Source: a virus (Duplodnaviria; Heunggongvirae; Uroviricota; Caudoviricetes). From it: a DNA stretch of 43,765 bases. The stretch covers positions 1 to 43,765 of the IMG/VR virus record IMGVR_UViG_2917865565_000001; one strand, 5' to 3'. The notes below the pieces were generated by a model, which was not told where the DNA came from, did no database searches, and saw nothing but the letters and a program-made list of their open reading frames with translations. Made by a program: the position numbers and the translations under genes. Below, one piece after another: positions 1,667 to 43,413 of this stretch (position 1 is its first letter; every line of letters starts with the position of its first letter).

Positions 1667-2148
1667 GAACATCCACTTTACCAAAAAATCATTTTTTTGG
1701 TGGGGTAATACCTGGCGATTAACAAATCTGAAAACAAAGCTCTAATACAGCGGCGAAAGCATGATTTACTTGTGTATATTTAGTTCAAGACGTGCTTCGC
1801 CGTGCATCTCTCACTATTTCCCTCCAGAGCAACATTAAAATACTTCATATAATATAGATATAAGTATCATCTAGCCAAAAACCATTTGAATCCACATGCA
1901 TTCCAGCTTTTATTGATACTCTATCTGATATATCATCCCACCAATTCAGCCATTAATGCTATGACAGGAATTCTAGTTATTCATCATTTTGAGCTGATGA
2001 TGTAATAACGCAACTTATTAATATCTAATGTTTTTTCACTCACCCCTATTACTTCTGTGGCGCTTGCAAAAAAATCATTCAGTCTGAAGCAGGTAATTAA
2101 TCTCGCCACTTACTATCAGTTTCGGGAAAGTACACTAAACATGCTTTT

Positions 2149-2455: not shown

Positions 2456-3157
2456 TCAGATATCACTTCGGGAAGTTGATAACAACTTTAATTCTGACTC
2501 AAGTTCATCAACTCTTTCAGTCAGTTTCTGGATATGGTGAATCAGTGGAACAACCAGACGTTCGTACATTACACCTTCGGCAACAAGGCCATTGCTGGAA
2601 ATAGCTTCCGGAGCATCATTCTCGTTAGCTGGTCGCCAGTGTACAAACTGAGGGGCAATTTCTCCAACTTCCTCGGCAATCAACCCGTAGAATCCCCAGT
2701 CACGCCTGTCATTTTCGCATTGCGACCTGTACCACACAGGGCGCATCTTGAAAATGAGATCGGCGTGCTCTGAATCTATCGTCTCTACTGAATGTTTATA
2801 GCGGATAGACGATGTTGACCGCAGCACAGACGAAATTGCGGGGTCAGGATTAAGATAAAGGTTTGCCGCCGCTGTAGTCGTGCCCAATCCCCACAAATAA
2901 AACGCTTCACGACCAGTCAGCGGGTAAAAATCTCCACCATAACGACCACTTTCCAGATCGTTCACTTCCACTTTGTTTTTCAGCTTATTATCAACTTCAG
3001 TTTTTGTGTATCTGGAGCTGATATCCTGCTTTGCACTGGTCATCTCAGTCTGAAGCGTTGATACTTTTCCGTTAATTGAGGAAATATCTTCCTTAGCTTT
3101 ACTGACATCTCCCTTTAGCGTGGTAATGTCTCCCGGAATTACTGTCGATGTAGCCAT
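2456..3157 (-). CDS. tail-fibre-associated protein with C-terminal intramolecular chaperone (peptidase S74-like) signature
   Basis: 233 aa; N-terminal coiled region; C-terminal SSIRYKHS, FYGLIAEEV and VMYERLVVPLIHHIQKLTERVDELESEL match the S74 chaperone pattern. Confidence 0.5.
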   Translation of the reverse strand: MATSTVIPGDITTLKGDVSKAKEDISSINGKVSTLQTEMTSAKQDISSRYTKTEVDNKLKNKVEVNDLESGRYGGDFYPLTGREAFYLWGLGTTTAAANLYLNPDPAISSVLRSTSSIRYKHSVETIDSEHADLIFKMRPVWYRSQCENDRRDWGFYGLIAEEVGEIAPQFVHWRPANENDAPEAISSNGLVAEGVMYERLVVPLIHHIQKLTERVDELESELKLLSTSRSDI

Positions 3158-3166
3158 TTTTCTTCC

Positions 3167-3448
3167 TCACATCCAGCCACGAAGTTGATGCTCAACAGCA
3201 ACCACGTATTCATCGAATATTGACGGTGTTTTCACATCATTAATGATGCGCACGTTTACAAAATATCCGTCTTCCTTAACACATACCGGTTCGCCATCTT
3301 CATTCAGTTCTCCGGTTTCTTTGTACACGTTACCTATCACGTCAATAAGAATATCATCCTGCATCGACTCGTCATCATAATAGCCAGTGCTATCCATAAA
3401 GGCCGAAAAGTCGGCCTTGTCTGCAAATTTGAGTGTTAAATCTTTCAT
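3167..3448 (-). CDS. hypothetical protein in tail-fibre module
   Basis: 93-aa ORF, start overlaps stop of upstream ORF (ATGA coupling). Confidence 0.4.
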   Translation of the reverse strand: MKDLTLKFADKADFSAFMDSTGYYDDESMQDDILIDVIGNVYKETGELNEDGEPVCVKEDGYFVNVRIINDVKTPSIFDEYVVAVEHQLRGWM

Positions 3449-4641
3449 TAGATTGACTCCCCCATCTGAGCATCAGTCAATGCCTTGTGCCATATTCTGA
3501 AATTCCTGATATGACCAAATAAATGACGTAATCCGGCTGTAGTCTGGCCTCCAATACGGATAATTGCGGTGCTCTGAATATAGGACCATGTGGTTTTTGT
3601 TTCGCTGGATATACGCCCGTTACTTACTGCGCATGTAGACTGATCAGACTTTACACGCATCCCCATAACCATTTTTTCAAGTGATGCTTTTTCGTTTATC
3701 CGTCTGTTAGACCCACCAATATCGCAATAAGGAAATCCGTCGTAATCTGCTGAAGAACCGAAGCCAAGAATAATAGCCGCTCCGGTTTGATGACCGCCGG
3801 TATCAAAAACACGCGGTGCTGCATTTGGCGTTTTATACCAGTTCTTATGTACCTCACAAAGAACCGTAAAAGGAAGATTATAAAGATTATTCTTAATTGG
3901 GACTGTAACTATATCGCTTGCCCGTGTTACCGGTGCAGCCCCCGTAACAATAAAAGATGATGCGCCTGTACCAGCCTCAATCTGGGGAGTGGTTACATCG
4001 AGACAATCCCCTGATGCCACCATCTGACCTGTATCCGGAGAATACTGGACGAAACCACCAACCGTATTTTCTGTTGTATCTGCTTTTAATGTAGCCTCAA
4101 AAAATATCCAGCCAGTTGCATCATCCTTAACAGACCTTGCTGTAACACGGCTTGTCTGACCCGTCTTGCTAATTATGCGGGTGGTAAGGTTCAGGCTTGC
4201 TGTTCCTATTGATGTCCTTACTTCCCCATCATAATGTTCAAATAAAATACGAACGGCGATATTATCAACTTCACTTTTTACCCGGCAGGATATAGTTACA
4301 TACTTTTCGTCACCTGAAGTATCAACCCCACCGGTACTTGAATACAGCCCTATAATGGTATGCGCTTTACTTGTGCCAACAATCGAATCCTGTACGACAA
4401 ACCGGCCATAATTAAAACCGAAACTATCTGTGCCTGTTTCTGTAACGTCCAGTGAAGTTGACTTATTCCACTTCGAAGGGTCTGTACTGTTCGGGAAGAA
4501 GTTCGTTCTTTGCCCCTCAATAAGCAGGCCATCACGTTCAAACCGTGGCTCGTCAATGGCAGCCTCTGTCAGCACACCAGATTTATTAATGTAAGTTGCT
4601 TTCGATGCGCGTTTAAACTTTACAATCTTGTCGCCAGGCAT
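3448..4641 (-). CDS. side tail fibre, distal portion (non-lambda); probably once continuous with the stf ORF upstream
   Basis: 397-aa ORF; its frame stays open upstream through the T8 run (…KKIVIGDDEITMPGDK…). Confidence 0.5.
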   Translation of the reverse strand: MPGDKIVKFKRASKATYINKSGVLTEAAIDEPRFERDGLLIEGQRTNFFPNSTDPSKWNKSTSLDVTETGTDSFGFNYGRFVVQDSIVGTSKAHTIIGLYSSTGGVDTSGDEKYVTISCRVKSEVDNIAVRILFEHYDGEVRTSIGTASLNLTTRIISKTGQTSRVTARSVKDDATGWIFFEATLKADTTENTVGGFVQYSPDTGQMVASGDCLDVTTPQIEAGTGASSFIVTGAAPVTRASDIVTVPIKNNLYNLPFTVLCEVHKNWYKTPNAAPRVFDTGGHQTGAAIILGFGSSADYDGFPYCDIGGSNRRINEKASLEKMVMGMRVKSDQSTCAVSNGRISSETKTTWSYIQSTAIIRIGGQTTAGLRHLFGHIRNFRIWHKALTDAQMGESI

Positions 4642-4648
4642 TGTTATT

Positions 4649-5833
4649 TCATCGTCGCCAATAACAATTTTTTTTATATGATGGCGAAAAGCCCGTAATC
4701 ATATCCAATGAATCGTTAAACGGTATCCACACATCGGGAAGCGGCTGCAAAACTTGTTTATACGGCTCCGCAGCCTGGCTTGCATACTCTCTGGCTGCGT
4801 CTTCACTTGCTTTTGCAGCCGTCTGGCTTGCAGCGGATGCTTTCGCCGAGTTAGCCGCCGCAGTCTCGCTCGCCTTTGCGTTGGTTTCACTGGTTTTTGC
4901 AGCTTTTTGACTGTTGGCAGATGCAGTGGCAGAAGTAGCCGCCGCACTTGCAGAACCGGCTGCGGCACTTTCGCTTTGGGCCGCTGCATCCTGACTGTTT
5001 TTCGCCGCAGTTTCGCTGGCTTTGGCATTCGTTTCGCTTATTTTCGCTGCCGTCTGGCTGGACTTTGCGTTAGTTTCACTCGTCTTCGCAGCTTTCTGGC
5101 TGTTAGCCGCAGCAGTTGCTGATCCAGCTGCTGAAGTCGCAGAACCGGCTGCAGCACTCTCGCTTTCGGCTGCTGCATCCTGACTGCTTTTCGCCGCAGT
5201 TTCACTGGCTTTGGCATTCGTTTCGCTTATTTTCGCTGCCGTCTGGCTGGACTTTGCGTTAGTTTCGCTCGTCTTTGCGGCTGTCTCACTGTTTTTCGCG
5301 TTGGTTTCTGATTTTTTGGCAGCTGTCGCGGAGTTTGCCGATGCAGTCTGCGAGGACGCTGCCGCCTGTGCGCTGTTAGCTGCATTCGTTTCTGAGGTTT
5401 TCGCCGCGTTCTTCGATGATGCCGCTGCAGTTTCGGATTTCTTTGCCGCCGCTGCGCTCTGAGAGGCGGCTTCGGCGTTGCGTGCCGCTTCTTCCACCAT
5501 TGCCTCAAAACGACGCAATGCCTCCGGCATGACATCATCTTCCGTCATGGCACCGAGAAAATCATTCAGCGTACCTGGTCTGGAACCTTCATAGACGGTA
5601 ATGGTCCCGGCATGTGAAGGCGGAAAACCTTCAACCAGCAGGGTGACGCTGTACTGACCATACTCAACATCCATGCTGTAACGCCCGGCTTCATCCGGAT
5701 TTTCAGAGGCCACCGTGTTCACCAGTACCGTGGTGCTGTTACGCTTTGCCTTCAGTTGAATAGTGCAGTTCTGTATTGGTTTTCCCGCACCATCTTTCAG
5801 CACACCTGAGATTTTTACTGCTGCCATATCCAC
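4649..5833 (-). CDS. stf: side tail fibre Stf, N-terminal portion
   Basis: N-terminus MAVKISGVLKDG… and VEYGQYSV…GFPPSHAGTITVYE match lambda Stf; followed by Ala/Ser/Thr-rich repeats; ends in out-of-frame tail after homopolymer. Confidence 0.7.
   Translation of the reverse strand: MDMAAVKISGVLKDGAGKPIQNCTIQLKAKRNSTTVLVNTVASENPDEAGRYSMDVEYGQYSVTLLVEGFPPSHAGTITVYEGSRPGTLNDFLGAMTEDDVMPEALRRFEAMVEEAARNAEAASQSAAAAKKSETAAASSKNAAKTSETNAANSAQAAASSQTASANSATAAKKSETNAKNSETAAKTSETNAKSSQTAAKISETNAKASETAAKSSQDAAAESESAAAGSATSAAGSATAAANSQKAAKTSETNAKSSQTAAKISETNAKASETAAKNSQDAAAQSESAAAGSASAAATSATASANSQKAAKTSETNAKASETAAANSAKASAASQTAAKASEDAAREYASQAAEPYKQVLQPLPDVWIPFNDSLDMITGFSPSYKKNCYWRR
4940..5320. repeat. tandem duplication of about 189 bp inside stf (two 63-aa A/S/T-rich copies)
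   Basis: Near-identical DNA blocks about 190 nt apart (gcatcctgactg…ttcgcagc); protein repeat KTSETNAKSSQTAAKISETNAKASETAAK… twice. Confidence 0.6.
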
Positions 5834-6558: not shown

Positions 6559-9500
6559 TCAACTGATACTGATACCGGCTGTTGATTTCTTCATCACGAC
6601 AACAAGAAGGTCGCTGATACTGGTCGTTGGCGTCCAGTTATTAGCACCATATGAAGAAACATTGAAAGTCAGGGTGACATGACCGTGTCCGGCAGGCATA
6701 TCAATGACGGATGAAAATACCCTGCTGACATCCGTCGCGGGTTGCTGAAAGATTTCCTGTCCGTTCTTCAGCACCTGCAGCTTACAGGTTGAATACCAGT
6801 ATGACTGTTGGTTGTTGCTGTTGAAGTTTTCATGCTTACCACCGCGAAACAGAACAGGTGGGATTACTATCTGACGGTCAAAAGCCTGATCATCGTACAC
6901 AGTGACCGTTATTGTACCGCTGGCATAACTGCCATTTCTCGGAAAGGCTTTTCCCACCGTTTTGACAATATCACCTTCAATCTGGTTGGCAGACAGTTTT
7001 CCCAGAATCAGACAGTTCTGGTTAATCGTGACATTATTGAGCGTCCCGGAGTTCGCATTCACGTTACCGCTGATATCGGCATTTTTCGCCGTCAGCCGCC
7101 CGTCCGGTGTCAGGGAAAATACCGGAGGATTGCCGCCGCTGGTAATGGTGGGAGCCGTCAGATACTTCAGGAACACTTCGTTCATGAATATCTGGTTGCC
7201 CTGCGCCACAAACATCGGCGTTTCATTCCCGTTTGCCGGGTCAATAAACGCGATACGGTTAGCGGCAACCAGGAACTGGCTCAGTTTGCCTTCCTCCGTA
7301 TCCTCCATGCTGAGGCCAAGCCCCGCGACATAATGCCTGCCGTCTTCGGTCTGCTCAATTTTGACGCCCCACATGGCATTCCATTTATCGTTGGCGTCTT
7401 TCCACTCTTTCGAAAACTCCTCCAGTTTGCTGGCGTTATCCTCCGTCAGCTCGACTTTTTCCAGCAGCTCCTTGCCGAGATGGGATTCGGTTATCTGGCC
7501 TTTGAAAAAATCCAGGTAACCTTCCGCATCATCGCTCGCCCGACCGACAGCCTCCACGAATGTCGATTTGCCGACGGTGTTCACACTGCGAACGTAAAAA
7601 TAATAATCATGGCCCGGTTTGATATTGATACTGGCGGCTATCCAGTACAGCGCCGTGCCAAGATAGCGGGCTGTGGTTTCAACCTGCCTGATATCCGCAA
7701 TCCGCTTTTCCGAGAACCAGAACTCAAACTGTACCGTCGGATCATAAACGGCAAGATGCGGCGTGGCGGTTATCTGAAAATAGCCCGGCGTCAGCTCAAT
7801 CCGCGACGGCGCTGCCGGTGCGGCAATCCGGAACGATACCGATGCCGGATCGCCCTGCTGCCCCCAGGCATTTGCCGCCCGGACTGTCAGCCTGTAGTTT
7901 CCCAGCGCCAGTTGCGTGAAGCGGTATGTGGTTTCCGTCGTCCGGGCCGTGCTGACCAGCCGCTCACTGCCGTCATCCGCTGCCACGGTCAGGCGAAGCA
8001 TAAAGCTCACACCCTTCACCACCTTCGGCGTATCCCAGCGCGCCAGCACCTGGTATTCCCCGCTGTCTGCGGTGACTTCTGCGGTCAGGTGCTGCACCGC
8101 TGGCGGCGTGACACCATTCACCGTGCCGCTCTGGTCGCCGTCAAAGTGCGCCCCGTTATCCACGATGGCCTCTTTCTCCGGCACATGCTGCACAGCGGTG
8201 ATGGCATACGTGCCGTCGTCATTCTCACGGATACTCACACAACGGAACAGGCGCTGGCGCAGCGTCGGCAGCTTCAGCCCCCACACGCTGTACTCGGCAA
8301 CGCCGTCAGGAACCCGGCTCACTTTCACCTTCACGCCGTCGGTGACGGACTGGACCTCCACGCTGACCGGATTCCCCTGCCCGTCAACCAGGCTTATCAG
8401 CGTGGTGCCGGAGGATGGCAGCGTGATTTCTCGGTCGAGCGTCAGCGTCCGGGTCTGGCTGTTCACCGCCAGCACACGCCCGCCGATGCTGATCCCCGCA
8501 TAGTCATCATCACAGATTTCAATGACATCACCCGGTACATGGCGAAGCCTTCTGCGCCCACGCTGAAGTCCACGGTCTGCGTTTCCAGCAGCTCCGTTTT
8601 AATCAGCCACAGCCCGGCGCGGTGTGCCTGCCCCCGGCTGGTACAGCCAAAGGCATCCATCTTCGTGACGTTGCGACCGTAACGGAGAATGGCCTGCGTA
8701 TCTTCAACAAGCTCTGTCGCCGTCTCCCAGCCGTTATTCGGGTCAATCCAGTTCACCTCAATGGCATTATGGCGGTCCTTCAGGGCGCTGAAGCTGTAGC
8801 GGAACGGCGCGCCATCATCCGGCATCACCACATTACTGCGGTTATAGGTCCACACCTTATCCGACGGTCGGTCCTGCACGAACGTCAGCGTCTGCCCGTT
8901 CCATACCGGCATACAGCGCATCGCCGAGCAGAAATCACTGAGAACATCCCACGCCTTACGCTGTGTGGTCAGGTAGGCATTACAGGTGATGCGCGGCTCC
9001 GTGCCGCCAAAACCGTCCGGCACCGACTGGTCGCAATACTGGCCGATGACATACAGCGCCCATTTATCCACATCTGCCGCACCAAGACGTTTACCCATGC
9101 CGTAGCGCGGGTGGGTCAGCATATCCCACAGACACCAGGCCATGTTGTTGCTGTATGCTGGCTTAAACGTTCCGTCCCAGATACCGCTGTATTGCCGCGT
9201 CTGCGGGTTATAGTTCGACGGCACCTGCAGAATGCGCCCGCGAAGATGATAATTACGGCTCACCTGCTGGCTGCCGAACTGTTCCGAGTCCACCTGCACG
9301 CCGACCAGTGCCGTGTTCGGGTAGCACAGTTTCACATCGATGATTTCGGTGTATGACGACCAGAGCGTTTTGTTCTGCAGCTGGTCTGTGGTGCTGTCCG
9401 GCGTCATCCTGCGCATCCGGATATTAAACGGGCGCGGCGGCAGGTTACCCACCACCACCGAGGCCAGATACTGCGAGGTAGTTTTGCCCTTAATGGTGAT

Positions 9501-9956
9501 GTCTTTTTCCGTCACCCAGCCACCGTTACGCTGTATCTGAACCAGCAGGCGGACTTCCGACGGATTCCGGTCTCCCTTTGAGGTGGTTTCCACCAGTGCC
9601 TGCACACCGAAGGTAAAGCGCAGACGGTCGATGTTTGCCGACGTGATGGTCCGGGTGATCGGCGTGTCATATTTTACTTCCGTACCCAGCACCGTCTCGG
9701 ATCCGGAGGATTCAAAACCCTCCGGCGGTGTCTGCTCCTGCTCACCTGCCCGGAACACCACCGTGACACCGGCGATGTTGGTATTCCCTTCACTGTCCAG
9801 CACCGGCGTACTGTTCAGCAGCACGCTTTTTAATCCATCCACCGGACCTTCTATCGGCCCTTCGCTGATGGCATCGATCACACTCAGTAACTGCGTGGAT
9901 TTCAGGTTGTCCTTCGCTTCGCGCGGGGTATGCCCCTTACTGCTGCCTTTACCCAT
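6559..9956 (-). pseudogene. J: tail tip / host-specificity protein J, reading frame interrupted
   Basis: Two ORFs (8463..9956 and 6559..8475) in different frames together cover lambda J; first ends in junk tail [23 protein letters not shown], second frame reads [29 protein letters not shown]. Confidence 0.8.
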
Positions 9957-10016: not shown

Positions 10017-10664
10017 TCAGCGACCAATCACCACAACCTGACCACCGTCCCCTTCGTCTGCCGTGCTGATCTCCTGAGAAACCACCCGCGACCCCACACG
10101 CATTTCACCGTACAGAACAGGCAAAACATTGCCCTGAGCAACCATGTTATCCAGTGAGGAGAAATAGGTGTTCTGTTTGCCGTTATCTGTACTGGCTGCC
10201 GTGGGCGTCCTGGCTTTCGGTGCCAGCATCTGCGCCACACCTCCCAGGATCATACTGGCCCCTGCCGCATACATGCCCGATACAGCCGCGGCACCCAGCC
10301 AGCCCACAGGGTTCCACCATGCCACCGCAATCAGCGCCGCCCCCAGCACTGCCTGAAAAACACCGCCACTTTTGGCACCAGCCAGACGCGGTACGATGTG
10401 GATCACGGCACCATTTGCCAGCGGCTCATTAAGACGGGCAGATAATTCATTTTCGCCTGCATCACGCCCGGCAATGCGCACCTGATACCAGCCCTCATTC
10501 AGTTTCTGACGAAACGCCGGGAGCTGTGTGGCCAGCGCCCGGATGGCTTCGGCCCCCGTTTTCACACGAAGGTCGATGCGACGGCCAAATCGTTGCAAAT
10601 CCCCGTAAAGGCAGATGCGTGCCATGCCCGGTGACGCCAGAGGGAGTGTGTGCGTCGCTGCCAT
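10017..10664 (-). CDS. I: tail assembly protein I
   Basis: Matches lambda gpI as recalled; overlaps 3' end of K as in lambda. Confidence 0.85.
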   Translation of the reverse strand: MAATHTLPLASPGMARICLYGDLQRFGRRIDLRVKTGAEAIRALATQLPAFRQKLNEGWYQVRIAGRDAGENELSARLNEPLANGAVIHIVPRLAGAKSGGVFQAVLGAALIAVAWWNPVGWLGAAAVSGMYAAGASMILGGVAQMLAPKARTPTAASTDNGKQNTYFSSLDNMVAQGNVLPVLYGEMRVGSRVVSQEISTADEGDGGQVVVIGR

Positions 10665-11310: not shown

Positions 11311-12009
11311 TTACTGCGAAAGTTTGTTAATGGAAAGGAAGCCGCCAAAGTTGCCGACGTTATTGCGAAACTTGCAGCCACTCAGGCATTTGCTGCATTT
11401 ATCCTTCGTGATATCGGACGTCGGCTGGTCATATTCATCCGCGACCGCCGGACCGCTATAACCGCACTCATCACCGCGATAGGTCCAGGTGCAGGTGTTG
11501 GCCAGCATGATACGTCCCGGAAAAACAGCGCCGTCCGTTTCCGTCGGCGTGGACAGTACAAAGGAGGCACTCACCGCGCTCAGTTCGCTGCACTGCTCAA
11601 TGCGCCAGCGGCTGATCACCTCCTGCTCCGGATCGGCGTCGCTGTTTCCGTTGACGAAGTTCACCGCATCCAGAAAACGGGCATAAACCTTACGCCTGAC
11701 CACCGTTCCGCAGACCAGACTCTGCAGTTCTTCCGCCATCCCGGTGACCATGCCGTGCAGGTTAGAGACCGTCAGTGTCGGACGGGCAGCACTGCCCTTG
11801 CCGTTCAGTTCAAATCCCGTCCCCTGAATGGGGTATGCCTGATACTGCCGCCCCTGCCAGGTGACCGGCTCACCTTTTTCGTTCTGCTCATTACAGAAAA
11901 AATAACGTTCACCACCGACCTCTGTCAGATCGATTTCCCAGAGCACCACGCTGGCAGACTGCTCCGCACGGGTGCATTCATTCAGTGTTTCCTGTCGGAT
12001 ATCCTGCAT
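11311..12009 (-). CDS. L: tail tip protein L
   Basis: 232 aa, matches lambda gpL. Confidence 0.9.
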   Translation of the reverse strand: MQDIRQETLNECTRAEQSASVVLWEIDLTEVGGERYFFCNEQNEKGEPVTWQGRQYQAYPIQGTGFELNGKGSAARPTLTVSNLHGMVTGMAEELQSLVCGTVVRRKVYARFLDAVNFVNGNSDADPEQEVISRWRIEQCSELSAVSASFVLSTPTETDGAVFPGRIMLANTCTWTYRGDECGYSGPAVADEYDQPTSDITKDKCSKCLSGCKFRNNVGNFGGFLSINKLSQ

Positions 12010-14914: not shown

Positions 14915-15341
14915 ACCGGACTCCTCCTGCGATCCCTTCTGATACTGTCATCAGCATTACGTCATCCTCCGTCATGTCCGCCACATCCGGGGAGGCGGGG
15001 ATAACTTCATTCCCGTCCGGACCAAAACGAACACCTCCGGCAAGCCCTGCCGCTTTCTGCATCAGCACATCACCTTCAGGCTCTTCGTCAGCCTCACACC
15101 GGTTCAGCAGACTGAAATCCAGCGGATGCATATCCGGATCGCTGAAAAACAGGCTGAGCACGGTGTACGTCAGCCCGGAAAAGTGCATATCCAGCAGAAC
15201 ATCATGAAAATAATGGGTACTGTAAAAGCGGTGCCAGTCGGCATACTCCGTGGATGACATCCCGGCAAGCATGGCGCGCCAGTCGGGTCGCCCCATCTCA
15301 CGCGCCAGTTTCAGGGCAAAACTCAGCTCACCGTCGAACAC
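14907..15341 (-). CDS. T: tail assembly chaperone T portion, expressed as G-T fusion by -1 frameshift
   Basis: ORF opens at GTG directly after the slippery heptamer; sequence matches lambda T. Confidence 0.8.
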   Translation of the reverse strand: MFDGELSFALKLAREMGRPDWRAMLAGMSSTEYADWHRFYSTHYFHDVLLDMHFSGLTYTVLSLFFSDPDMHPLDFSLLNRCEADEEPEGDVLMQKAAGLAGGVRFGPDGNEVIPASPDVADMTEDDVMLMTVSEGIAGGVRYG

Positions 15342-15736
15342 TTTCCCGCAGAAACAGGCTCTGCAGGCCCGGCGTCATCTGCCTGTTCAGGGGCATTATT
15401 CACCACAAACTCATACATACCGGACAGCCGGTACACCACGTTTTCAGCATGAGAAATTGCCTCTGTGGGCCAGGTGGTAAGCACTTCCTGCTCAATCTGT
15501 TTAACGGCTTCATTCATGGACGGCATCTGCGTCTTCTTCGGATGGTTATGCCACAGAGACATCGCCACCACAAAAGCGCCGGTTCTGATGACGTCTTCCA
15601 CAGTAAACTTCCGGTTGCTGTCGGATTCTGCCTGCTGTTTCATCAGGGCGAGATGCTCAATACGCTGCAGGGCTGACAGTTCAGAAAGCGTGACGGTCAC
15701 GCCGTTATATTCAAATGATTCGGTTTTCAGGAACAT
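15323..15736 (-). CDS. G: tail assembly chaperone G
   Basis: 137 aa, matches lambda gpG. Confidence 0.85.
   Translation of the reverse strand: MFLKTESFEYNGVTVTLSELSALQRIEHLALMKQQAESDSNRKFTVEDVIRTGAFVVAMSLWHNHPKKTQMPSMNEAVKQIEQEVLTTWPTEAISHAENVVYRLSGMYEFVVNNAPEQADDAGPAEPVSAGKCSTVS
15341..15347 (-). other. programmed -1 ribosomal frameshift slippery site G GGA AAG (G to G-T)
   Basis: Plus-strand ctttccc, i.e. GGGAAAG on minus strand, at the G/T overlap. Confidence 0.75.

Positions 15737-21009: not shown

Positions 21010-21029
<20 letters not shown>
19710..21029 (-). CDS. C: capsid assembly protease C (scaffold Nu3 nested in frame at 3' end)
   Basis: GTG start giving (M)TAELRNLPHIASMAFNEP and 439 aa; overlaps end of B. 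Confidence 0.85.
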
Positions 21030-24711
<3,682 letters not shown>

Positions 24712-26199: not shown

Positions 26200-26493
26200 A
26201 TGAAAAAAATGTTGTTTTCTGCCGCTCTGGCAATGCTTATTACAGGATGTGCTCAACAGACGTTTACTGTTGGAAACAAACCGACAGCAGTAACACCAAA
26301 GGAAACCATCACCCATCACTTCTTCGTTTCGGGAATTGGACAGGAGAAAACTGTTGATGCAGCCAAAATTTGTGGCGGCGCAGAAAATGTTGTTAAAACA
26401 GAAACCCAGCAAACATTCGTAAATGGATTGCTCGGTTTTATTACTTTAGGCATTTATACTCCGCTGGAAGCGCGTGTGTATTGCTCACAATAA
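26200..26493 (+). CDS. bor: Bor lipoprotein (serum resistance)
   Basis: 97 aa from MKKML…ITGCAQQTF lipobox; matches lambda Bor. Confidence 0.85.
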   Translation: MKKMLFSAALAMLITGCAQQTFTVGNKPTAVTPKETITHHFFVSGIGQEKTVDAAKICGGAENVVKTETQQTFVNGLLGFITLGIYTPLEARVYCSQ

Positions 26494-27813: not shown

Positions 27814-27889
27814 TGGTGCTGGTTAACGGACTTGAACCGCTACCCATTCGCTTACAAGGCGACTGCTCTACCATTAGAGCTAAACCAGC
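27814..27889 (-). tRNA. tRNA-Thr (anticodon UGU)
   Basis: 76 nt; perfect 7-bp acceptor and 4-bp D stems; G18G19, TTC T-loop, encoded CCA; anticodon loop CTTGTAA; one mismatch in anticodon stem. Confidence 0.7.
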
Positions 27890-27894
27890 ATGTT

Positions 27895-27969
27895 TGGCGG
27901 GACAGCGTGGACTCGAACCACGATAAGAAGGTTAACAGCCTTCCGTAATGACCTTTATACGACTGACCC
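27895..27969 (-). tRNA. tRNA-Asn-like (anticodon GUU), possibly degenerate
   Basis: 75 nt; perfect anticodon and T arms (GGTTCGAGTCC), CCA encoded; one mismatch each in acceptor (T4:T) and D stems. Confidence 0.55.
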
Positions 27970-39629: not shown

Positions 39630-40109
39630 GTGGCGGAGTGGGAAGAAATGAAACAAATGTCACTAATTGAGATGGATGGATTTCTGAAAGGTAAATGCAT
39701 CCCAAGTGATTTAAAGGTTAACGAAACAAACGCTGAATATCTGGTGCGTAAATTTGCTGAAGCGGAGGCCAAGTGCGCGGCGCTGGCGGCGGAGAATGCG
39801 GGGCTGAAGTCTGGCGCTATGGACGAAATCGAGGTTATCAACCGTGGAGGGCAGGCATATTGCGTAAAAGATGGAGTGCAAGTTAATCCCATGTATGCAA
39901 GAGGGTGGAATGACTATCGCGCAAAGTCTCTGCAATCAAACACTCCAGCCACTGATGCTTTCCTGACTGAAATTGAACGCAAAGCAATCCGCAAGTTCAT
40001 TAATAGCATTGAACACATCCTGCGTGACAACTTGTCACCGTATGACACCGAAGAGATGCTTGAGGCTATGCGTATTTTTCTGGAAGAACAGGGAGGTGAG
40101 CAAAAATGA
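39630..40109 (+). CDS. hypothetical protein
   Basis: 159-aa ORF; start could be Met at 39645. Confidence 0.45.
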
Positions 40110-40420
40110 CAATCACAAAACAACGAGTAGAAAAAATCATATATCGCCATGAAATGGGACTGAACAGCGATGTCACTGCCGAAGAGGTTTATGACCTGGC
40201 TGTACTGGTGCTGAATTTATCAAATATCGCAAACCTGAAGCGATACGAGCTTGATATGGATGGTTGTGACTCGCGCGGTCAGGATTGTGGCGCTGACATG
40301 ACTGAAGATTCTGATGGCGATTATGTCCTGTTTGATGACGTGGTTAAGTTGTTTGAGTTTGATACAACCACTCAGAAGCTAGAAAGCCCAGCAAAGGAGG
40401 CAGCCAGTGAGCGAGATTGA
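40106..40420 (+). CDS. hypothetical acidic protein
   Basis: 104-aa ORF, start overlaps upstream stop. Confidence 0.45.
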   Translation: MTITKQRVEKIIYRHEMGLNSDVTAEEVYDLAVLVLNLSNIANLKRYELDMDGCDSRGQDCGADMTEDSDGDYVLFDDVVKLFEFDTTTQKLESPAKEAASERD

Positions 40421-40961
40421 CTATCAGGCACTGCGTGAGGCGGCGCAGAACGCGAAAGATTTAGGTGGGATTAAGAATTACAAGCGAGGCGAGCAAGCTG
40501 TTGCCGAATTTGAGTCCCTGACAACGCCACACATTGTGCTGGCGCTTCTGGATGAACGGGAAAGAAACCAGCAATACATCAAACACCGCGATCAGGAGAA
40601 TGAGGATATTGCGCTAACGGTAGGGAAGCTGCGCGTTGAGCTGGAAGGCAAAGACAAGCTGATTGCAGAGCTTAGAAAACAATGCGCTGAATGGGAGCGA
40701 AAGGCATTTAGCAACTTTGAAGAGTGCGCTGCGATGGCTGATCGTATCGAATATATGAGTAAGCAAAGTTGCGAAGCTCGGGAGCGTGATTTGTTTGAAT
40801 CATGGGTAATGCATTCAATTTGTATCTCCAAATCGACGCTTGAAGGATTGCGTACCGAAACTGGATACCGTAACGCAACCTTATCAGGCACAGACTTCAA
40901 CCGAATGTGGGAACAATGGAAATCTATCCGCGCCGCTGGCATTCGCATCAAAGGAGAGTGA
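40407..40961 (+). CDS. ea22: Ea22-like protein
   Basis: MSEI..QALREAA…VLxLLDERERNQQYIK.RDQENEDIALTVGKLRVELE…AGIRIKGE matches lambda Ea22 ends. Confidence 0.6.
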   Translation: MSEIDYQALREAAQNAKDLGGIKNYKRGEQAVAEFESLTTPHIVLALLDERERNQQYIKHRDQENEDIALTVGKLRVELEGKDKLIAELRKQCAEWERKAFSNFEECAAMADRIEYMSKQSCEARERDLFESWVMHSICISKSTLEGLRTETGYRNATLSGTDFNRMWEQWKSIRAAGIRIKGE

Positions 40962-40962
40962 T

Positions 40963-41151
40963 ATGTCACTGACAGTGAGGCAGTTAATCAGCAAGCTCAG
41001 AAAAATGCCTCCTGAGGCTGTCGTGGTCTGGCAGGGCTATGACCAATCAGAGGGTGACTATAACGATTTCGTAGTCCATGTCGCTGATATTACAGATGAA
41101 AATTCATCATCCTTTGACCCGGAAGTGCGCGTTGTGGCACTTAGAGGATAA
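40963..41151 (+). CDS. hypothetical small protein
   Basis: 62 aa from ATG with AAGGAGAG RBS; track ORF extends upstream in frame. Confidence 0.4.
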   Translation: MSLTVRQLISKLRKMPPEAVVVWQGYDQSEGDYNDFVVHVADITDENSSSFDPEVRVVALRG

Positions 41152-41154
41152 CCT

Positions 41155-41436
41155 ATGAACACTTTTACAGACAAAGAACTGATTAAAGAAATCAAAGAGC
41201 GAATCGGTAGCCTGGACGTTAGAGACAATATTGAGCGCCGTGCTTATGAAATTGCGCTGGCATCGCTGGGAGCAGAGCCTGTGGCATATCAGTATCGCCA
41301 GTGGGATGCAGAAAATGATGAATGGGGGGAATGGGAAGATTGCGGGGAATGTGCTTTCGAATGGTTTGCCGAGGGAGAGAAACGCCTTGGGGAAGGCGTT
41401 CAGACCCGTAAGCTATACGCCGCGCCGCCATGCTAA
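41155..41436 (+). CDS. hypothetical protein
   Basis: 93-aa ORF, Trp/Glu-rich. Confidence 0.45.
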   Translation: MNTFTDKELIKEIKERIGSLDVRDNIERRAYEIALASLGAEPVAYQYRQWDAENDEWGEWEDCGECAFEWFAEGEKRLGEGVQTRKLYAAPPC

Positions 41437-41451
41437 ACAAGGAGATGAACA

Positions 41452-42354
41452 ATGGATAATCGATATGAAATAGCAGAACAAAATGGCATGAGCCTAGAGT
41501 TCGCTGACTGGTTCTTTGATAACAAAAAAGATGGCTGTGGAAACACCTGGTTCGTGATGATGGCTGCCATGTGGGAAGGCTGGAAAGGCCGGGCAGAACC
41601 GCCAGTGCCGGATAAAATCGCGCAAGCAATTGAAAATCTCAAGCAGAAGTTAGTGGAATGCAATCGCTATAACTACTGCGCAGATGCAGTTAAAGGTGTT
41701 GAGGATGCCAGCCGCGTCTTGGCACTCCAAAATCAAAATATGTCAGCGCCGATAACGCCGGAGGCCATTGAAAACGCAATTGAATACATCCGCAGTATCG
41801 CTTTTCACATCGATGAAGACGATTACCACGGCAAACATATTGCGTATTTCATGCGACAAGCATTGGCCTGGCTGGAAGGGCATTCATGCAGCGATGACAG
41901 ACAAGGTAAAGCCGACAATCAACCAGCATCTGGTAACCAGGTCGCCGAATTCAATAACGGTAATGAGTGGACTGGCAATCCTGATATTGATAACGCAATC
42001 ATCATGCTCGACCGCGTAGATACGGCGGAACGTTGCGATGATGACCGTATTGAGGCTGTTAAGGCTGTGTTGCGTAAACTGGCTGGCAACTCTCCGGTAA
42101 CTCCGGATGGTTGGGTCATGGTGCCGAAGAGACTAACTATTGAGAACGGCGCTAAAGGTGCACTTTCTGGTGAGTTTTCAGAAACAGTATTCACTAACTG
42201 CCCGGAATGTTTTGGTGATGATGATTGCGAAACTTGTGACTGCAGCGGGAGAATCGAAATCAAGGTTCCAGTCAGTTGGACAACTATCAAAACTATTTGG
42301 GCTAAAGGGGGTGAGCACTTTTCAATAGTAGCACCGCAGCAAGATGGGGGATGA
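41452..42354 (+). CDS. hypothetical 300-aa protein with C-terminal Cys cluster
   Basis: AAGGAGATGAACA RBS; C-terminal CPECFGDDDCETCDCSG zinc-ribbon-like motif. Confidence 0.5.
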   Translation: MDNRYEIAEQNGMSLEFADWFFDNKKDGCGNTWFVMMAAMWEGWKGRAEPPVPDKIAQAIENLKQKLVECNRYNYCADAVKGVEDASRVLALQNQNMSAPITPEAIENAIEYIRSIAFHIDEDDYHGKHIAYFMRQALAWLEGHSCSDDRQGKADNQPASGNQVAEFNNGNEWTGNPDIDNAIIMLDRVDTAERCDDDRIEAVKAVLRKLAGNSPVTPDGWVMVPKRLTIENGAKGALSGEFSETVFTNCPECFGDDDCETCDCSGRIEIKVPVSWTTIKTIWAKGGEHFSIVAPQQDGG

Positions 42355-42478
42355 AAACAAGCCTTTATAACTTAAAGGCATAAAAAAAATCGCTCATAGA
42401 CCAAAAGGAATCTACGTCAAATATTACTATATTTCAATGTGTTATAATGATCCCGTCCATAAAATGGGGAGACAAAAA

Positions 42479-42721
42479 ATGTTCAAACGCTGCATCACCA
42501 AGTGTGGAAGTACACCTGACATCCACGCTTTTATTAATGAAGATGGTAAGCTTGTTGTTGAGAGGAGTGGTCCTTTTATTAGCAAACAACTTATCATTAC
42601 CTTTCCAGCGGAGATGGCCGGGGAATGGATAGTTTCTGAACCAGAGGAGTGGCACATCCCTCTTCCTTATGGCCCTCAGGGACTGATTTATAACCGTTAT
42701 GTTCAGAAGGAGGCGGGTTGA
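42479..42721 (+). CDS. hypothetical protein with own promoter
   Basis: 81 aa from ATG preceded by GGGGAG; extended -10 TGtTATAAT about 30 nt upstream. Confidence 0.4.
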   Translation: MFKRCITKCGSTPDIHAFINEDGKLVVERSGPFISKQLIITFPAEMAGEWIVSEPEEWHIPLPYGPQGLIYNRYVQKEAG

Positions 42722-43031
42722 CAATGCCAGGCATAACATCGCCGAGCAATCGAAAGAAAAACAGAACAAGGTAAACGTTGACCTTGCAGCATCAGGCGTG
42801 GCGTACAGAGAGCGCCTTAACATACCTGTTATCACTGAGCAGGTAGCACGAGAGCAACCTGAGCACTCACGCGAGTATTTCATGGAGCGCGTCAGATACT
42901 ATCGCGAGCAGTCGTTAAACCTGCCCAAGGGAAGCAACCATGGTATATCGAGATGGATGAACAGAACGCCAAGAAGTAAGCGCAATTTGAACGAATGCGA
43001 ACCCGCCGAGTGCGGGTTTTCTTTTATCTGA
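42699..43031 (+). CDS. hypothetical basic protein
   Basis: 110-aa ORF; 3' end overlaps a terminator-like hairpin, so coding status uncertain. Confidence 0.35.
   Translation: MFRRRRVDNARHNIAEQSKEKQNKVNVDLAASGVAYRERLNIPVITEQVAREQPEHSREYFMERVRYYREQSLNLPKGSNHGISRWMNRTPRSKRNLNECEPAECGFSFI
43000..43024 (+). terminator. rho-independent terminator-like hairpin
   Basis: CCCGC-CGAGT-GCGGG followed by TTTTCTTTTAT. Confidence 0.45.
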
Positions 43032-43068
43032 ACTCGCTACGGCGGGTTTTGTTTTATGGAGACAAGAA

Positions 43069-43413
43069 ATGTCAGATTTGGCTATGAAGGTTTTGAAATG
43101 GCAATCGACTGGCGATGTCGGCATCAGTAGCGCAACTCTTGCCTCAATCGCATGTGGACTGAAAAAGAATATCTATGGTCATCACTTCGGCGCTCCACAT
43201 GACGCAGCCGATTTCCGACGATGCGTTGCACTTGTTGAGCAGATTCCAGAAATCAGAGATTCATTCGACAAGGTTGCAAAGCGCGTTCCGGCATTCAAAG
43301 GCATCCTCAACGAATGGGATTCCCTCGTTGCTCTGTTGAAGTCTGAAATGAAGATACACGGAAACAAAGCACCAGAGACTTACAGAAGAATCAGAGAACT
43401 ACGCAAGGACTAA
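43069..43413 (+). CDS. hypothetical protein
   Basis: 114-aa ORF with GGAGA RBS. Confidence 0.45.
   Translation: MSDLAMKVLKWQSTGDVGISSATLASIACGLKKNIYGHHFGAPHDAADFRRCVALVEQIPEIRDSFDKVAKRVPAFKGILNEWDSLVALLKSEMKIHGNKAPETYRRIRELRKD

Follow-up and report, generated by a model that had tools for sequence, protein, structure and literature searches.

The window analysed here, a stretch of DNA of 43,765 nt, contains a lambda-like late region on its minus strand. Mapping of 27 reference proteins by tblastn places the tip attachment (host specificity) gene J in the tail module, after K and I and ahead of lom and stf. The whole of J (6559–9956, minus strand) spans 3398 nt, one base short of its full-length phage homologues, each of which measures 3399 nt; the nearest of these phage genes share 97% DNA identity with it (megablast). 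As stated in a preliminary description of this DNA, J is covered by two ORFs in different frames: the ORF listing shows them on the minus strand at 8463–9956 (497 aa) and 6559–8475 (638 aa), and tblastn confirms the arrangement. With the intact J of E. coli 23CRST032 as the query, residues 1–471 align to frame −3 (9956–8544) and residues 467–1132 to frame −2 (8559–6562).

The upstream ORF (8463–9956, minus strand) consists of 470 genuine J residues, ending in ...SVGAEG, followed by an out-of-frame tail and a stop. The existence of this tail had been recognised, but it comprises 27 out-of-frame residues and not the 23 initially counted. The expected continuation of the protein had been assigned to the other frame, and the downstream reading frame (6559–8598, minus strand), which is open back to 8598, indeed reads as described and contains J residues 471–1132. 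On either side of the break, the J protein is 98.7–98.9% identical to that of the L005 prophage (tblastn). The break is a specific lesion in an otherwise 97–99% conserved gene rather than a chance pattern of ORFs.

The lesion itself maps to positions 8548–8549, where the gene (minus) strand has GG (CC on the plus strand) in place of the expected GGG (CCC), so that at codon 470 GGG followed by CTT turns into GGC TTC. A MAFFT alignment with the J genes of phages Lambda_4C10, Turner, and PhiR29_2 shows one gap in the window sequence, and the same single gap is obtained when the J genes of two E. coli prophages (L004 and L005) are added. A single gap at this site is also seen against the SRR8835204 Logan contig and the GCA_005781075.1 assembly. 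At the gap, the window reads GAAGGCTTCGCC and the references read GAAGGGCTTCGCC, that is, GCAGAA-GG-CTT-CGC-CAT as opposed to GCAGAA-GGG-CTT-CGC-CAT. The small indel that had been predicted near GAAGGCTTCGCC is therefore a 1-nt deletion lying exactly there. Alignment to intact J genes revealed no uninterrupted frame in this interval: the window as deposited has J in two frames, and a single uninterrupted J frame is present in the SRR8835204 contig and in GCA_005781075.1. As a separate observation, J of phage PhiR29_2 (PV340557.1) is annotated as two CDS; the cause is a 2-nt gap at alignment columns 1947–1948, which may be either erroneous or genuine.

Insertion of one G yields a 1132-aa protein with its sole stop at the end, identical to the J of the SRR8835204 Logan contig. 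The repaired protein is colinear with the lambda tip attachment protein J (PDB 8iyk chain J) over residues 1–1131 of 1132 (2320 bits) and matches all six of the Pfam families FNIII-A_GpJ, Phage-tail_3, Ig_J, Ig_J_second, Phage_Tail_Tip, and Ig_GpJ_C above their curated cut-offs. The last four of these families fall in the downstream frame, and the Phage-tail_3 match stops at position 138 of the 164-position profile, which places the break inside this domain. Once one G is restored, the window J thus resembles lambda J in its length of 1132 aa, its full domain set, and its position between I and lom; as deposited, it differs from lambda J in being split by the 1-nt deletion into ORFs of 497 and 638 aa.

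A tblastn comparison with the proteins of a close relative showed that 24 of the 27 structural and lysis genes in the late region are intact, at 75–100% protein identity. Only stf, J, and the portal gene B are split, each with a single-base homopolymer change. None of the genes tested contains a nonsense codon, and the late region showed neither an IS element nor a large deletion. Otherwise, the prophage is probably a complete lambda-like element and not a defective one. In the chromosome it has thrS and the KAP-NTPase on one side and yniD and pfkB on the other, and its integrase lies just past the end of the window.

Three further features of the region were observed. Genes for tRNA-Thr(TGT) and tRNA-Asn(GTT) are located at 27814–27969 on the minus strand, between the lysis cassette and the gene of the Q antiterminator. 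Gene G has an in-frame 9-nt deletion at 15626 relative to two E. coli prophages. The protein encoded by gene I (10020–10565) is 75% identical to its counterparts in two E. coli prophages, with neighbours at 95–99%; this divergence is ordinary lambdoid mosaicism.

Source assembly and homopolymer differences

Over three stretches, amounting to 35,228 of the 43,765 nt, the window and contig PDIJ01000010.1 (GCA_004745205.1) are 100% identical; the record of the latter has no protein called for the portal or for J. The parent entry, PDIJ00000000, represents the Escherichia cryptic clade II strain E2562, which was sequenced by Ion Torrent with single-end reads of 35–400 nt at 50x, with MIRA 4.0.2 and SPAdes 3.6.0 as the assemblers (PMC6639607). 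The best matches to the window among complete RefSeq E. coli genomes reach 96–98.6%.

A sequence-identical relative is provided by GCA_005781075.1 (VATM01000015.1) and the Logan contigs of SRR8835204, which cover positions 1–22915 and 39722–43086 of the window (26,280 nt). Across this length, the relative and the window have no substitution and seven differences (at positions 45, 594, 2074, 4675, 8548, 22361, and 42389), every one of which is a single-base change in the length of a homopolymer. In the relative, J (1132 aa), the portal (533 aa), stf (792 aa), and the NTPase (580 aa) are each unbroken. SRR8835204 and GCA_005781075.1 may come from a clonal sister of E2562 and not from a second sequencing of that strain. 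Seven indels in the company of no substitution are unlike natural divergence and are the pattern that homopolymer miscalls produce. As a control, the complete RefSeq genomes L004 and L005 differ from each other by 558 substitutions and one isolated 1-nt indel in 25 kb; the window and L004 are separated by 8–9 isolated 1-nt indels.

Apart from the one in J, the discrepancies (six in all) are gains of a single base in A/T runs of 6–7. The portal lesion (22355–22361, minus strand) is an A7 run that is A6 in relatives and splits portal gene B (21010–22612). A6 is found in seven references and in the SRR8835204 contig, which encodes the intact 533-aa portal; A7 is common to the window and the SRR6148323 Logan contig, and a scan of IMG/VR found no contig with the same lesion. 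In the side tail fibre gene stf (3448–5833), a T8 run at 4668–4675 (minus strand), T7 in relatives, splits the gene. T7 is present in L004, GCA_005781075.1, and the SRR8835204 contig, and stf is intact at 792 aa in GCA_005781075.1; an exact-protein look-up with the C-terminal stf ORF returned no match. The preliminary description had grouped the portal and stf breaks with that in J, and all three are indeed of the same kind, namely single-base homopolymer changes; of the two readings offered for them, a defective prophage is disfavoured.

Two of the remaining sites lie on the plus strand in a gene for a KAP/P-loop NTPase (1–1666) and break this chromosomal or island gene, which adjoins the prophage. 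The first (38–45) is A8 in the window and A7 in GCA_005781075.1 as well as in the SRR8835204 and SRR6148323 Logan contigs; across genomes, this run is A6 in E. coli A3 and A7 in most. The second (588–594) is A7 in the window and A6 in the same three sources. The NTPase is intact (580 aa) in GCA_005781075.1 and the SRR8835204 contig. An intergenic run at 2068–2074 (plus strand) is A7 instead of A6, and a run in the early region at 42382–42389 (plus strand) is A8 instead of the A7 of the SRR8835204 Logan contig.

A second view of what is apparently the same isolate comes from the Logan contigs of SRR6148323. These have no substitution relative to the window and have the J and portal lesions in common with it; evidently, the deposited assembly and the SRR6148323 contigs represent the same clone. 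Nevertheless, the two disagree at six other homopolymer sites in ~21 kb. At positions 45, 594, and 2074, the SRR6148323 contig has A7, A6, and A6, as in the references and against the deposited assembly. Extra 1-nt deletions in SRR6148323 occur at 5681 (AA to A), 10859 (GG to G), and 11611 (GG to G); they would break stf, K, and L, and none of them is found in the deposited assembly or in SRR8835204. Given these six conflicts between assemblies of one clone, homopolymer lengths in these data are unreliable at about one site per 3–4 kb. Conversely, the presence of the J and portal lesions in both the deposited and the k-mer (Logan) assembly implies that most SRR6148323 reads support both lesions. 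Reproduction of the lesions in both assemblies fits a systematic error and also fits a real mutation in the isolate.

A census of homopolymers was used to gauge the behaviour of the longer A/T runs, of which 7 of the 12 with a length of at least 7 could be compared by exact flanks. Runs in agreement with the references begin at 1539, 19313, 19326, and 23012, and also at 26203; the run at 1692 is variable among references, and the remaining compared runs are one base longer in the window. Universal overcalling of long A/T runs was rejected on the grounds that four of the seven compared runs match the references. As not all long A/T runs are overcalled, the errors are stochastic.

Occurrence of the J deletion in other genomes and contigs

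The distribution of the lesion was surveyed with a 38-mer that spans it and is designed so that intact copies give no seed, and with a 39-mer as its intact counterpart. None of 5,426 complete RefSeq E. coli genomes contains the lesion 38-mer, and the intact 39-mer occurs at 3,066 places in 2,097 of these genomes. IMG/VR contains at least 120 intact copies of the J site and one with the lesion. An inherited pseudogene allele was rejected on the basis of these k-mer counts in complete genomes (0 as against 3,066). In agreement, related prophages show no inheritance of the lesion, which is absent from the relative with no substitutions and from all 3,066 complete-genome copies.

Three other sequences carry the identical deletion. 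The first, CP178302.1 (E. coli ECMA0423), is listed as a "complete genome" of 4.44 Mb and shows 80 gaps per 2.8 kb relative to the window. Its J is in pieces distributed over all three frames, yet the genome collection uses this genome as a species representative, a status that may reflect assembly noise depressing its identity to other E. coli. The second, the IMG/VR contig UViG_3300003862_000001, has stf, lom, and L frame-split as well, and the third, the ENA contig OQEB01000169, has a k-mer coverage of 2.3 and many 1-nt deletions. The flanks of the lesion in these carriers are 5–9% diverged from the window, with SNPs within 10–26 nt of the lesion. Common ancestry with the lesions of UViG_3300003862_000001 and OQEB01000169 was rejected in view of the close SNPs on both sides and the many other indels: with SNPs at such short distances, the deletion is not shared by descent.

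The J deletion is accompanied by a GG to G deletion in gene L (window positions 11610–11611) in UViG_3300003862_000001, OQEB01000169, and the SRR6148323 contig, which are independent sequences of low quality. Neither the window nor any of 7,914 copies of L in complete E. coli genomes has the L deletion. In the three contigs, 1-nt deletions often fall within a GGC context. The co-occurrence of the J and L deletions points to context-specific systematic undercalls, which explain it only in part.

Origin and meaning of the J break

Indels in homopolymers are the dominant and characteristic error of Ion Torrent sequencing. We consider it very probable that the J break is a base-calling and consensus artefact, that is, an Ion Torrent undercall of the G3 run that was kept in the draft. 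The platform would have read GGG as GG, and the undercall would have persisted into the MIRA/SPAdes draft of E2562 (PDIJ01000010.1); we infer that the reads and not the DNA are wrong at the J site. The prophage in the cell would then most likely have an intact, 1132-aa lambda-type J gene, and the breaks in the portal, stf, and KAP-NTPase genes, together with the two non-coding homopolymer differences, would represent the same kind of error. The preliminary description had left the choice between a defective prophage and an error-prone assembly; the Ion Torrent source, the restriction of the differences to homopolymers, and the six conflicts between assemblies of what appears to be one isolate strongly favour an assembly error and disfavour a defective prophage.

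In several respects the window behaves as expected of Ion Torrent homopolymer errors: its differences are single-base changes in homopolymer length, substitutions are lacking, and assemblies of the same clone disagree. The J case is unlike this picture in being an undercall of a 3-base run that is reproduced in both available assemblies. Three Gs make a short run for a homopolymer error, and the other six differences are gains in longer A/T runs, which also counts against an artefact. Residual doubt about the artefact stems from the fact that both assemblies of the isolate's data reproduce the lesion, and for the same reason the J undercall behaves as a systematic, context-dependent error and not as a random one.

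This reproduction is also what speaks for the foremost alternative, namely that E2562 very recently underwent a real loss of one nucleotide that inactivates J. Prophage decay in nature commonly proceeds through frameshifts in short runs. A related known case is the stf of lambda PaPa (orf-401/orf-314 as compared with the Ur-lambda stf), a real 1-nt frameshift that splits a tail-fibre gene in an otherwise intact phage, has been verified experimentally, and was passed to all descendants. The window J is similar to it in that a 1-nt frameshift produces two ORFs in an otherwise intact phage, but differs in that its lesion is absent from the sequence-identical relative and from high-quality genomes. 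If the J deletion were real, the prophage would, in conjunction with the portal and stf frameshifts, be unable to form infectious particles. We regard a real deletion as unlikely. The ratio of no substitution to seven homopolymer indels over 26 kb is unexpected from natural mutation, and at least three of the seven indels are contradicted by what appear to be the isolate's own reads. Moreover, none of the 3,066 complete-genome J copies has the lesion, no other decay was detected in the late region, and the documented platform (PMC6639607) is one prone to homopolymer errors.

A considerably less probable explanation treats the site as a mutational hot spot or a phase-variable switch, such as might arise in a lineage deficient in mismatch repair, through which J would repeatedly be turned off in different phages by loss of a G. 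It draws on the identical deletion in CP178302.1, UViG_3300003862_000001, and OQEB01000169 despite their diverged flanks, and on the same L-gene deletion co-occurring in the latter two and in the SRR6148323 contig. Yet every carrier is of low quality and has many other indels, neither deletion is seen among the complete-genome copies of J (3,066) and L (7,914), three Gs offer too short a run for slippage to be efficient, and for the clone of the window itself the deposited assembly speaks against the L deletion. In its boldest form, to which we would give very little credence, the GGG of J and the GG of L (11610–11611) would together constitute a genuine recurrent deletion hot spot that repeatedly and independently inactivates lambdoid tail genes in natural populations, working as a crude on/off switch of particle production, and that shows up only in metagenomic and draft data, finished genomes being prone to under-sample such variants.

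Least probable of all, to the point of being negligible, is that ribosomes bridge the two frames by a programmed −1 frameshift or that J is naturally made as two polypeptides: such frameshifting does exist in this phage, as seen from the canonical lambda G/GT heptamer G GGA AAG at 15341–15347 (minus strand) in the G/T overlap, but direct reading of GCAGAAGGCTTCGCCATG, GCA GAA GGC TTC GCC ATG, around the J break found no slippery heptamer of the type X XXY YYZ, the two-frame layout is absent from every comparable J gene (homologues form one 3399-nt ORF, with 3,066 intact copies and no lesion copy), the break cuts through the Phage-tail_3 domain, and the sequence-identical relative has a single J ORF, so that this reading was rejected.

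The finding as such is ordinary. Taken at face value together with the portal and stf breaks, the J break would lead to the prophage being labelled defective and to three pseudogenes being added to its annotation. Where several homopolymer frame breaks appear in an otherwise pristine gene set, the sequencing platform and sequence-identical relatives should be checked before biology is invoked. If the J break is an artefact, E2562 probably harbours a lambda-like prophage that is complete and may be inducible.
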